A DNA stretch of 32,000 nt from Ignavibacteriales bacterium (GTDB lineage: Bacteria > Bacteroidota > Ignavibacteria > Ignavibacteriales > Melioribacteraceae). Positions 2,973 through 8,622 of the stretch are shown here, piece after piece. A model generated the notes under the pieces. That model was not told where the DNA came from. It was given only the letters and a program-made list of their open reading frames with translations, and did not search any database. Each line of letters starts with the position of its first letter. Within the stretch, counting starts at the first letter, position 1. The DNA lies in NCBI GenBank assembly GCA_027348115.1, contig DAIEQA010000212.1, positions 1 to 32,000 on the forward strand, read 5' to 3'. Made by a program: the position numbers and the translations under genes.

Positions 2973-3541
2973 CCCCGTCGTGAACGACGTGGCAGACAAC
3001 CCATCTATCCATCCGTATCGTTTACAATACGGTTAGAAGAGAACCAATCTAAGAGTTAAGTGGCTTTTGCACTACTCTTTTTTCGGCTAAAGCCGGTGAT
3101 ACTAATTATTTTATTCGTTAACTTTTGGTCGCGCAACAGTCATGGTATTCTTCAAATATCTACTTAACCGTATCATTTAAGATACGGTTACAGCGTCATT
3201 CATTAAGCATTCATGGGCTTTAGCCCAATTCTCTCTTTCGGCTAAAGCTGTTGAGTTTCTTCTATGCCTCACTAACTCAACCGTGAACGACGGAGTGGAT
3301 ATCATTATATGTTTATCAATCACGTAACGGTATCGGCGTTCTTCATGTCTGCCAAACCGCGTCATTTATGATACGGTTACAGCGTCATTCATTAAGCATT
3401 CATGGGCTTTTTAGCCCAACTCTCTTCGGTTAAAGCCGAGTGTCACCTCTGTATGCTGCCAACTCACATAAGCTACAACCATATCGTTTGCGATATGGTA
3501 CACCGGTAACCAGCACCAAGTCTATCCGGGCTTTAGCCCAA
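2973..3541. repeat. REP/BIME-like composite hairpin-repeat block A (core block about 3076-3541, plus leader hairpins at 2973-2992 and 3013-3032)
   Basis: Three hairpin families are arranged in a fixed order. H1 is GGGCTTTAGCCC or its complement CGGCTAAAGCCG. H2 is CCGTATC-ATTTA-GATACGG. H3 is NNCCG-TGAA-CGGNN. An internal ~85-bp unit occurs twice (3166-3250 and 3355-3437). The block aligns almost base for base with 3971-4491. Confidence 0.9.
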
Positions 3542-7690: not shown

Positions 7691-7718
7691 GTAGAGACGT
7701 TCGATCGAACGTCTCTAC
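7691..7718. repeat. REP hairpin, family 2 (GTAGAGACGTTCGATCGAACGTCTCTAC)
   Basis: Perfect 28-nt palindrome immediately upstream of the second RAYT. The same GTAGAGACG/CGTCTCTAC arms recur at 8278-8347 and 8597-8622, and the GAGACG core at 9820-9845. Confidence 0.85.
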
Positions 7719-7782
7719 AACATTAGATGACAAAATATAAAAACACATATCGAATTGAATCGGCTCGTTTAGAAACATGGGA

Positions 7783-8064
7783 TTTATCCCGTGAGATATA
7801 TTATGAGATATTTTTATGTATATGTATTAAAATCGAAAATAGACGGTAAATTTTATACCGGCTATACTAAGGATATTATTAGTAGAATTAAAGAGCATAA
7901 TCACGGCAAAGTATATTCTACAAAGAATAGAATACCTCTCAAACTAATTTATTGGGAGGGGTGTCTAAATCAAACGGATGCAACAAATCGAGAAAAATAT
8001 CTGAAAACCGCCTGGGGAAAGAGGTATATTAAAAATAGAATAAAAAATTATCTCACGGGATAAA
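7783..8064 (+). mobile_element. 282-bp insertion carrying a GIY-YIG ORF, bounded by perfect 16-bp inverted repeats
   Basis: TTTATCCCGTGAGATA (7783-7798) is the exact reverse complement of TATCTCACGGGATAAA (8049-8064). The segment separates the two halves of the RAYT reading frame. Confidence 0.75.
7803..8063 (+). CDS. small stand-alone GIY-YIG nuclease-family protein (UPF0213/YhbQ-like)
   Basis: 86 aa from ATG 7803 (the track starts at GTG 7791). Motifs: FYVYVLKS...GKFYTGYT (GIY...YIG), a conserved Arg in SRIKEHN, and NREKYLK (Glu). No DNA-binding extension is present. Confidence 0.85.
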   Translation: MRYFYVYVLKSKIDGKFYTGYTKDIISRIKEHNHGKVYSTKNRIPLKLIYWEGCLNQTDATNREKYLKTAWGKRYIKNRIKNYLTG

Positions 8065-8277
8065 CTCCCTGGTGGTATTACGTAACAATATGTACAAAAA
8101 AACATCTTGAATCGTTCGGAAAAATTGCAAATGCTGAAATGCATTTAAATGAATGCGGAATGATTGCATCAAAATGTTGGAAAGAAATTCCAAGTCATTT
8201 CCAAAATGCAGATTTAGATTATTATGTAATTATGCCGAATCATCTACATGGGATAATAATTATTAATCAAATAACCA

Positions 8278-8347
8278 GTAGAGACGTTGCACCCGTCTCG
8301 ACTCGGCTGGATGCGAGTCCAGACGAGGCGGAACGCAACGTCTCCAC
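8278..8347. repeat. nested REP-in-REP hairpin inside the RAYT coding sequence
   Basis: The outer arms GTAGAGACGTTGC / GCAACGTCTCCAC enclose an inner hairpin CGTCTCGACTCG-gctggatg-CGAGTCCAGACG. The element stays in frame and encodes SRDVAPVSTRLDASPDEAERNVST. Confidence 0.75.
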
Positions 8348-8596
8348 AAATAATTTTTATTCTGAAATTTCACCACGAAAAGGAACGCTTTCTGTAATAA
8401 TAAGATCATTCAAATCGGCATGTTCCAAAGAGATTCATGGTAAGACCCTTAATAATTTTGCATGGCAACCGCGTTTTTATGATAGAATTATTCGTAATGA
8501 AAAGGAATTGTACAATGTCAGGAAATATATTGAACTGAATCCTTTAAAATGGGAAATAGAAAAATTTGTACCGGAGAATATCGATTTATTCTAATG

Positions 8597-8622
8597 GTAG
8601 ACGTTGCATGCAACGTCTCTAC
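8597..8622. repeat. REP hairpin, family 2 (GTAGACGTTGCATGCAACGTCTCTAC)
   Basis: It begins 3 nt after the RAYT stop and has the same arms as 7691-7718, with a 2-nt bulge. The long ORF-track start at 8566 reads through it. Confidence 0.8.

Follow-up and report, generated by a model that had tools for sequence, protein, structure and literature searches.

A GIY-YIG nuclease gene with hairpin-forming inverted-repeat ends as a putative minimal mobile element of RAYT and integron integrase genes

In a 32,000-nucleotide stretch of DNA from an Ignavibacteriales bacterium (GenBank assembly GCA_027348115.1, contig DAIEQA010000212.1, positions 1 to 32,000 of the forward strand; hereafter, the window), a gene for a repetitive extragenic palindrome (REP)-associated tyrosine transposase (RAYT) is interrupted by a 282-bp element that consists of a small GIY-YIG nuclease gene and perfect 16-bp inverted repeats at its ends. 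We read this element as a selfish nuclease gene with transposon-like hairpin ends, that is, an undescribed minimal mobile element. The explanation that we favor, as probable though well short of certain, is that a promoter-less GIY-YIG gene of the Slx1/UPF0213 type, whose ends form a 16-bp stem, spreads in a homing-like manner. A preliminary description of the window had already interpreted the segment as a homing-type mobile element of minimal size (about 280 bp) that disrupts the gene of another mobile element, and this proposal is borne out by the shared ends, the more than 25 insertion sites, the derivatives without an open reading frame (ORF), and the apparent gene conversion reported below.

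Anatomy of the element and its nuclease

With boundaries set by family-wide homology, the whole element occupies 7783-8064 on the forward strand and includes both repeats in full. The left terminal inverted repeat (TTTATCCCGTGAGATA, 7783-7798; family consensus, TTYACCCCGTGAGATA) has its exact reverse complement at the right end (TATCTCACGGGATAAA, 8049-8064). The nuclease gene (7803-8063, forward strand; UPF0213/YhbQ-Slx1 branch; 86 aa plus stop) starts with an ATG 4 nt past the left arm, with a GTG upstream at 7791, and runs into the right arm, which codes for the final Y-L-T-G residues and the TAA stop and adds one extra A. Perfect 16-bp repeats around an 86-aa GIY-YIG ORF had been recorded in the preliminary description, and all of these features lie where it had placed them. 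By chance, inverted matches with at most three mismatches are expected 0.42 times per window, and by our own arithmetic, about 0.002 exact 16-mer pairs in inverted orientation would be expected within 300 nt of each other per 32 kb. The terminal stem was present in both the minimum free energy and the centroid single-stranded DNA folds of the element (z = -4.4). Neither the stem nor the element matched an Rfam family at gathering or permissive thresholds, no ribozyme or intron signal was seen, and a sigma-70 promoter scan performed no better than on shuffled sequence.

The encoded protein matched the Pfam GIY-YIG profile (PF01541; E = 1.2e-13; 51.6 bits against a cut-off of 22.6), and the NCBIfam profiles returned no match for this ORF, the only one of the element, and nothing of the DDE, HUH, or Ser/Tyr class. 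The nearest solved structures in phmmer searches were those of the UPF0213 proteins BH0048 (1ZG2, 3.7e-7) and EF2693 (1YWL, 2.1e-5). Foldseek comparison of an AlphaFold2 model of the nuclease (predicted local distance difference test [pLDDT], 91.2) ranked 1ZG2 first (E = 2e-4), followed by Slx1 structures (template modeling [TM] score, 0.62-0.66; for 7CQ3, TM score, 0.66; root mean square deviation, 1.7 Å), which stood ahead of UvrC (1YD6) and I-TevI (1LN0) in the fold ranking. Slx1 cleaves branched and stem-loop DNA in a structure-specific manner, and an Slx1-like fold therefore fits the predicted action of the protein on the element stem. Across 46 homologues, 27 columns were invariant, including Y7, Y18, R28, H32, E52, R63, E64, and R79, and Y5 and N33 were kept in at least 90%; the conserved Tyr, Arg, Glu, and Asn are presumably the catalytic-type residues expected of a GIY-YIG enzyme, a role that we assign from family knowledge. 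The 86-aa protein corresponds to the catalytic domain alone, without a sequence-recognition module, and the ratio of nonsynonymous to synonymous substitution rates (dN/dS) among 58 nuclease copies (0.14) indicated purifying selection.

Conservation of the terminal stem and its ORF-less derivatives

Repeat statistics were computed on 73 copies from GTDB genomes, with the formal covariation count on 71 distinct rows. Nearly every copy carries 5'-TTYACCCCGTGAGATA ... TATCTCACGGGGTRAA-3', and 15 of the 16 repeat positions are Watson-Crick paired in 65-73 of the 73 copies (90-100% of 71-73). Next to the repeat (-1, +17), at the first base outside as well as the first base inside, pairing is at the chance level (0.22-0.25 in the 73 copies; 23-34% just outside for 71-73 copies), and controls with slid partners pair in 23-49% of cells (71 rows). 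The covariation score (0.124, compared with 0.082 in shuffles) was reached by 0 of 500 shuffles, and two-sided compensatory changes occurred at repeat positions 5, 8, 9, and 11, as in the pairs GTTAGATA/TATCTAAC, CATGAGATA/TATCTCATG, and CCACGTG/CACGTGG. The preliminary description had set as a test whether the repeats of other copies coincide with the boundaries of homology; they do so, exactly at 16 nt, in many phyla. At five loci (L025, L038, L045, L051, and L056), the stop codon of a diverged ORF precedes the right arm by 23-41 nt. Because the arm is kept beyond such stops and in copies that lack the ORF altogether, its conservation reflects more than coding constraint.

When the loci were searched for the 12-nt repeat cores, many arm pairs proved to be merely 20-90 nt apart. 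ORF-less hairpins of 41-110 nt keep the TTYA-core...core-TRAA ends and occur either dispersed (L005, L036, L075, L082, and L084) or in tandem runs with units of 37 nt (L066, 3256-3466), 61 nt (L019, 555-805), or 95 nt (L013, 1722-2014). One 68-nt ORF-less copy at the integrase position termed site A below (L017, 1086-1153) retains codons for the C-terminal ...KRYIKNRIKN stretch of the nuclease and is evidently an internal deletion of an ORF-bearing copy. Miniatures that share only their ends with ORF-bearing copies are a textbook indication that these ends, here the 16-nt termini, act in cis.

Neighboring units of the tandem runs share a single 4-nt linker (TTTA, TTCA, TGAA, or TAAA), and each right arm pairs with the left arm of the following unit in a tight palindrome. 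A CRISPR-like array was considered for the L019 units and rejected, the interiors being repeated rather than unique.

Distribution, host genes, and orientation

Close relatives of the nuclease protein numbered 1,658 at E <= 1e-5, nearly all of them 85-90 aa long, and 251 relatives were found when one genome of each GTDB species was scanned. The best 80 of these 251 came from Ignavibacteria, Bacteroidota, KSB1, Chlorobi-like bacteria, Cloacimonadota, Calditrichaceae, Planctomycetota, Verrucomicrobiota, Acidobacteriota, Anaerolineales, Atribacteria, and Patescibacteria, and relatives with repeat ends span more than 10 bacterial phyla. Several genomes contain three to five copies, and contig ends are a frequent location. 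Small YhbQ-like proteins had been characterized in the preliminary description as common and often multicopy, in agreement with these counts.

The copies occupy more than 25 unrelated insertion sites and, as judged from flank translations, most of them interrupt genes. Integron integrases host about half of the copies at no fewer than 10 codon positions; one example, once rejoined, scored 436 bits with TIGR02249 (cut-off, 265). A second, related integrase type holds six copies at three positions. About a dozen copies lie in RAYTs, distributed over at least three subfamilies and at least five positions: the WDYS RAYT position of the window is independently occupied in L030, and a position between KYI and EQN is filled in L030 and L099. 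Other hosts include an AlbA_2/HATPase-like regulator family, DinD/Bro-like genes, a GxxExxY protein, and an Avd-like gene. Relative to the host gene, 55 copies are co-directional, about three are antisense, and 14 are unclear. Two or three elements were found within single genes at L030, L018, L020, L068, L077, and L091. Searches of PLSDB plasmids and INPHARED phages gave no match at E <= 1e-10, and IMG/VR yielded one distant match; these collections thus give no visible sign that such vectors carry the element.

Several individual loci deserve mention. One RAYT in L030 contains two elements (2296-2580 and 2975-3253), and integron integrases contain up to three. The rare antisense cases L013 and L016 are opposite to an integrase (..DLRFVQKYLGH, minus strand) and beside a miniature run. 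A variant lineage with the ends CCACGTGAGATA/TATCTCACGTGG occupies the KYPNA..WQYVFP position of the integrase. The stop codon has been lost in some copies (for example, L012, with the right end GGGATTAA), so that the nuclease ORF continues into the 3' part of the integrase, and the 127-aa protein P0086, which matches both PF01541 and PF00589, may be a nuclease-integrase read-through product. An ISL3-like insertion sequence (IS) end also cuts the integrase about 117 nt upstream of site A in L090 and L094; given this additional insertion, these integrases are pseudogenes holding several mobile elements.

Junctions and target sites

Under five boundary definitions applied to 71 copies, no target duplication of 3 nt or more was found (3-nt direct repeats in 0-3 of 71 copies; repeats of at least 4 nt in no more than 2 of 71), and a TTAA-type duplication was rejected, none being present at the ends. 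Intact integrases at L108 and L109, with 83-84% protein identity to a filled integrase, have an empty site A. The empty site reads ...GTT AAA ACN... (with ...GGACATAGTAGTGTT directly followed by AAAACGACC... across the insertion point), and the filled site reads ...G TT[CATCCC...GGGATA]AA AAC...; the insert therefore lies between host TT and host AA. Site A is filled in L007, L008, L009, L012, L029, L089, L101, and L103. The second integrase type provides three other sites, located between TT and AC, between TT and CG (or T and A), and between TTC and AA. The odd base at left-arm position 1 in L048 (C) is the third base of a host AAC codon. The empty L108 and L109 alleles and this L048 variant suggest that the outer TT alone is host-derived. 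Inspection by hand placed a host TT at the left end in about 16 of 20 resolved sites, and the right end overlaps the host by 0-3 (rarely 4) nt of the final RAA. A gapped pattern for empty integrase site A had no match in JGI metagenomes.

Signs of homing-like spread

In 10 contigs that derive from different samples, integrase site A is occupied by the element encoding the nuclease protein P0070. This element shows 0 differences over 284 nt in these contigs, whereas 16 segregating sites, of which those at -56 and +14 lie closest to it, occur over 280 nt of flanking sequence; a naive Poisson estimate for this contrast gave P ~1e-7. Between L007 and the L089 group, the synonymous divergence (dS) of the integrase is about 0.5 (dN/dS, 0.05) and that of the nuclease ORF is 0.13, and the dN/dS of host alleles is low (0.05-0.1). 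The similarity of four more distant site-A elements does not follow that of their hosts. A second, different element lies 242 nt upstream of the P0070 element in L091, and L091 and L089 share 100% identity from the right end of that upstream element through the P0070 element to +13, with about 80% identity leftward. This tract looks like gene conversion stopped by a large heterology. Judged from these alignments, the identity of the P0070 element between diverged flanks and the conversion tract together are a homing signature.

The interrupted RAYT gene of the window

The element inactivated the RAYT gene in which it lies. The 5' fragment of this gene (MTKYKNTYRIESARLETWDLS, 7727-7789, forward strand) aligns with residues 1-21 of intact 170-200-aa homologues, and the 3' fragment (T-PWWYYVTICTK ... 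ENIDLF, then stop; 8064-8594, forward strand) follows in another frame with 176 open codons; a split at 7789 and a change of frame near 8064, as first described, are thus visible in the translations. The rejoined protein has 1,804 homologues, mostly of 170-200 aa with 94-100% coverage, several of which carry the name "REP element-mobilizing transposase RayT". Alignment with 14 intact homologues showed that the HUH motif (H80 and H82) and R157/Y159 are invariant, and the profile scores stay below the curated thresholds (Pfam, 17.8, cut-off 23; NCBIfam REP_Tyr_transpos, 55, cut-off 80). The filled locus recurs in four further independent assemblies and is therefore no assembly artifact. The closest intact allele found by protein search is only 63-69% identical.

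WDYSxPWWYY is read in 14 of 14 intact homologues, so that the frame and the spacing of the homologues are recovered, as WDLS-T-PWWYY, once 7790-8063 (274 bp) is removed. The excision of 7790-8066 (277 bp) in the preliminary description, said to give the expected spacing, is in frame and has to be corrected, as it leaves the protein one residue short relative to the homologues. The left repeat shares 5-7 nt with the end of the RAYT 5' fragment, and its outer 7 nt had accordingly been assigned to the RAYT target, an assignment that we abandon: the outer TTYA/TTYAYCC is found again in copies within unrelated host genes, and the nearest relatives, P0002 (81%) and P0003 (80%), both at integrase site A, share the T5/A5' variant TTCATCCC...GGGATAAA. 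P0005 (83%), at the RAYT site between KYI and EQN, has the usual C5/G5' pair, and the paired A5' of the window element falls within a nuclease Gly codon. The shared T5/A5' variant, the position of A5' in the Gly codon, and the recurrence of TTYA elsewhere all speak for ATCC (7786-7789) being element sequence. Probably, then, the outer TT (7783-7784) is host-derived and the remaining left repeat belongs to the element, and the neat restoration of WDLS-T-PWW may be partly coincidence. The complementarity of the 3' tail to the left flank, pointed out in the preliminary description, is present; it arises since both sit in the family-wide repeat and is not a copy of the RAYT locus. The occurrence of P0003 in two contexts was considered and rejected, L103 and L106 being one locus.

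Proposed mode of spread and competing explanations

As a selfish element with homing-like spread, the gene would be expressed by read-through from its host. Spread would mainly take place by recombination, which would transfer an occupied copy to the matching codon position in diverged homologues of the host gene, and its targets would be dispensable, conserved, and widespread, namely integron integrases, RAYTs, and a few others. Occasionally, a new site directly 3' of a host TT would be entered without target duplication. At the 3' end of such a site, 0-3 nt of the A-rich TRAA would overlap host bases, and the host TT would pair with the terminal AA of the element, lengthening the stem. Internal deletions would yield ORF-less hairpins, whose ends would be kept and which could then be amplified. 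The nuclease may act on the stem, on branched or cruciform DNA formed by it, or on an equivalent structure of the empty site, possibly with a 2-nt 3' stagger; such a stagger is typical of GIY-YIG enzymes. This scheme starts from the observed anatomy, distribution, boundaries, absence of duplication, co-orientation, population identity, and conversion tract, and we infer from them which enzyme cuts, which substrate is cut, and whether the intermediates are single- or double-stranded.

Several points weigh against this explanation. An 86-aa domain without a DNA-binding module is unlikely to be a sequence-specific homing enzyme for more than 25 sites, and hydrolytic GIY-YIG nucleases are not known to catalyze strand transfer. 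The right junction varies by 0-4 nt, and frame offsets of 0, 1, and 2 are evenly represented, so that one rule of cutting and rejoining cannot account for all copies; consistency is confined to the left side, after host TT. The stem contains a conserved mismatch at position 3 (C.A in 34, T.A in 15, and T.G in 11 of 73 copies). For the window RAYT, the databases contain no empty allele by which to place the exact junction; under the TT rule, this gene would have lost 3-6 nt, and alternatively, 8 repeat nt may stand in for host bases by coincidence. Finally, the homing signature comes from one well-sampled population, and the data are almost all metagenome assemblies, where repeats may be collapsed. 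As to position 3 (7785/8062 in the window), we also note that C.A would be a G.T wobble on the opposite strand and that the window itself has T.A.

A bolder interpretation of the same observations, possible and yet clearly less probable than homing-like spread, would make the family a new class of prokaryotic DNA transposon and, at about 280 bp, the smallest known autonomous transposon. The Slx1-like nuclease would then serve as a structure-specific "transposase" whose cuts, staggered by 2 nt (3'), fall where the terminal stem begins, new sites would be picked by pairing of the 3' AA tail with a host TT, and the element would have specialized in invading and disabling genes of recombinases that handle folded single-stranded DNA, namely integron integrases and RAYTs.

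The element might instead be an ordinary free-standing homing endonuclease gene that spreads purely by double-strand-break repair, its repeat having no part in DNA movement and acting on RNA (mRNA stability, RNase III release from the host transcript, or translational control). The homing signature with its conversion tract and the occupied sites in conserved motifs of conserved genes would both be expected on this account, and the co-orientation with the host gene together with the 0-37 nt from left arm to ATG suggests dependence on host transcription. We nevertheless regard it as unlikely. ORF-less hairpins that consist of the ends only are dispersed and amplified, as an mRNA-stability signal would not be, and homology at unrelated sites ends exactly at the repeat, with no donor flank carried along. 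Moreover, no Rfam family was matched, and position 3 is mostly a C.A mismatch on the sense strand rather than G.U.

Less probable again is a hairpin mobilized in trans by a HUH transposase of the RAYT/TnpA type or by an integron integrase, with the GIY-YIG gene as cargo in its loop. About two-thirds of the copies do lie in genes of hairpin-processing recombinases, ORF-less hairpins are common, the layout of tetranucleotide and palindrome is REP-like, and insertion, at the left junction of most resolved sites, occurs 3' of a short sequence without duplication, as in IS200/IS605. On the other hand, a single repeat is found over more than 10 phyla and in at least three RAYT families with their own, differing REPs (GTAGAGACGTT... 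in the window), it has none of the attC cores (RYYYAAC/GTTRRRY), and insertion into the ORF of its own mobilizer would be self-defeating. The fusion of the right arm to the last GIY-YIG codons, the purifying selection on the ORF, and its invariant catalytic-type residues also speak against mere cargo.

That the element is a removable insert (intron-like or a reversible switch), excised precisely from DNA or RNA so that host genes stay functional, can be largely dismissed: the host frames are long and intact on both sides in most copies, even with two or three inserts, and host dN/dS is low (0.05-0.1), but the number of repeat bases needed for the frame differs between sites (2 to 8) and is distributed evenly among the three phases, the hosts diverged before the element arrived, and low host dN/dS therefore predates insertion, the same integrase genes also hold IS insertions, and ribozyme or intron signals are lacking in the Rfam searches. 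A fixed splice or excision rule was accordingly rejected, since with offsets that depend on the site, no fixed boundary repairs all hosts.

Comparison with known systems

The preliminary description knew of no transposon-like vehicle for such genes, and our full-text literature searches, including those for YhbQ, UPF0213, COG2827, and the repeat sequence, likewise retrieved no description of such an element; the sole paper naming both GIY-YIG and integron integrase is unrelated to it. Known GIY-YIG homing genes (T4 Seg, I-TevI, and I-BmoI) share with the element the GIY-YIG domain, same-site copying in homologous genes, co-conversion of flanks, and targets in conserved motifs. The element differs from them in that its 86-aa protein has no DNA-binding domain and a fold nearer to Slx1/UPF0213 than to I-TevI, it has a 16-bp inverted repeat and ORF-less derivatives, and it lies directly in bacterial chromosomal ORFs at more than 25 sites, with no intron or intein.

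IS200/IS605 elements with their palindrome-associated derivatives and the REP/RAYT systems resemble the element in their tiny size, hairpins, lack of target duplication, and abundant, sometimes clustered miniatures, and, as far as the left junction of most resolved sites goes, in insertion 3' of a short host sequence able to pair with the element. Unlike these systems, the element has no HUH/Y1 transposase, RAYT being a host gene into which it inserts and by which it is apparently not mobilized; in contrast to IS200/IS605, a single stem joins both ends instead of separate subterminal hairpins, and the target is only about TT. TnpB/IscB homing of IS200/IS605 likewise combines transposon-like ends with a nuclease that may cut unoccupied sites for copy-back, whereas the element has no guide-RNA scaffold, RuvC, or HNH, and any guiding would be limited to pairing of its 2-nt tail.

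Miniature inverted-repeat transposable elements (MITEs), Correia/NEMIS, and Rickettsia palindromic elements also have short inverted-repeat ends and are scattered, some of them inside ORFs. By comparison with MITEs, a putative autonomous partner is known here and is itself 282 bp long, its enzyme is GIY-YIG rather than DDE, and there is no TA or other duplication. Transposons and insertion sequences with terminal inverted repeats share the coincidence of repeat ends and homology limits, the many unrelated sites, and non-autonomous derivatives; the element departs from them in having neither a target duplication nor a known transposase class.

UPF0213/YhbQ proteins and Slx1 provide the closest sequences and folds (1ZG2, 1YWL, and Slx1 7CQ3), yet neither mobility nor terminal repeats of UPF0213 genes were found in the literature searched, and Slx1 differs in partnering Slx4 and carrying a RING domain. 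Integron cassettes and attC sites share a small promoter-less ORF, a folded imperfect palindrome, and integron-bearing genomes. However, the element's repeat flanks the ORF rather than following it, has no RYYYAAC/GTTRRRY cores or extrahelical bases, and is conserved in sequence across phyla, and the element lies within the intI coding sequence and not in a cassette array.

If our interpretation is correct, a GIY-YIG enzyme of the Slx1-like kind would join the short list of enzymes that drive bacterial DNA mobility, and the minimum size of a self-sufficient mobile element would drop to about 280 bp. The element would give a concrete reason for the frequent multicopy state of small UPF0213/YhbQ-type genes. 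The integron integrases and RAYTs of many environmental phyla are systematically inactivated by a parasite of parasites, which is relevant to the decay of sedentary integrons and REP systems. On the practical side, the 16-nt ends allow truncated integrase and RAYT gene calls to be repaired in metagenome-assembled genomes, and the conserved stem with its tiny protein offers a tractable system of structure-specific cleavage and possibly a compact tool for DNA insertion.

REP sequences around and within the RAYT gene

The window RAYT shows the usual REP-RAYT layout, with REP palindromes (GTAGAGACGTT...AACGTCTCTAC) on both sides of the gene. They lie upstream at 7691-7718 (GTAGAGACGTTCGA / TCGAACGTCTCTAC) and downstream at 8599-8622 (AGACGTTGCATGCAACGTCTCTAC), neither assigned to a strand; the REP half-site was matched 6 times, against 0.11 expected. 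This REP sequence is unrelated to the repeat of the GIY-YIG element. A further REP copy, also separate from the GIY-YIG element, lies within the RAYT ORF (8278-8347, forward strand) and contains a 42-nt nested hairpin (8292-8333). The hairpin splits the internal REP in frame, with arms at 8294-8305 and 8314-8325 (11 of 12 paired), and adds the 14-aa sequence PVSTRLDASPDEAE. The split copy is translated as ..SRDVA..RNVST, and homologues have RDVACNVST (an unbroken REP) or VETGHAPSLQ at the loop.

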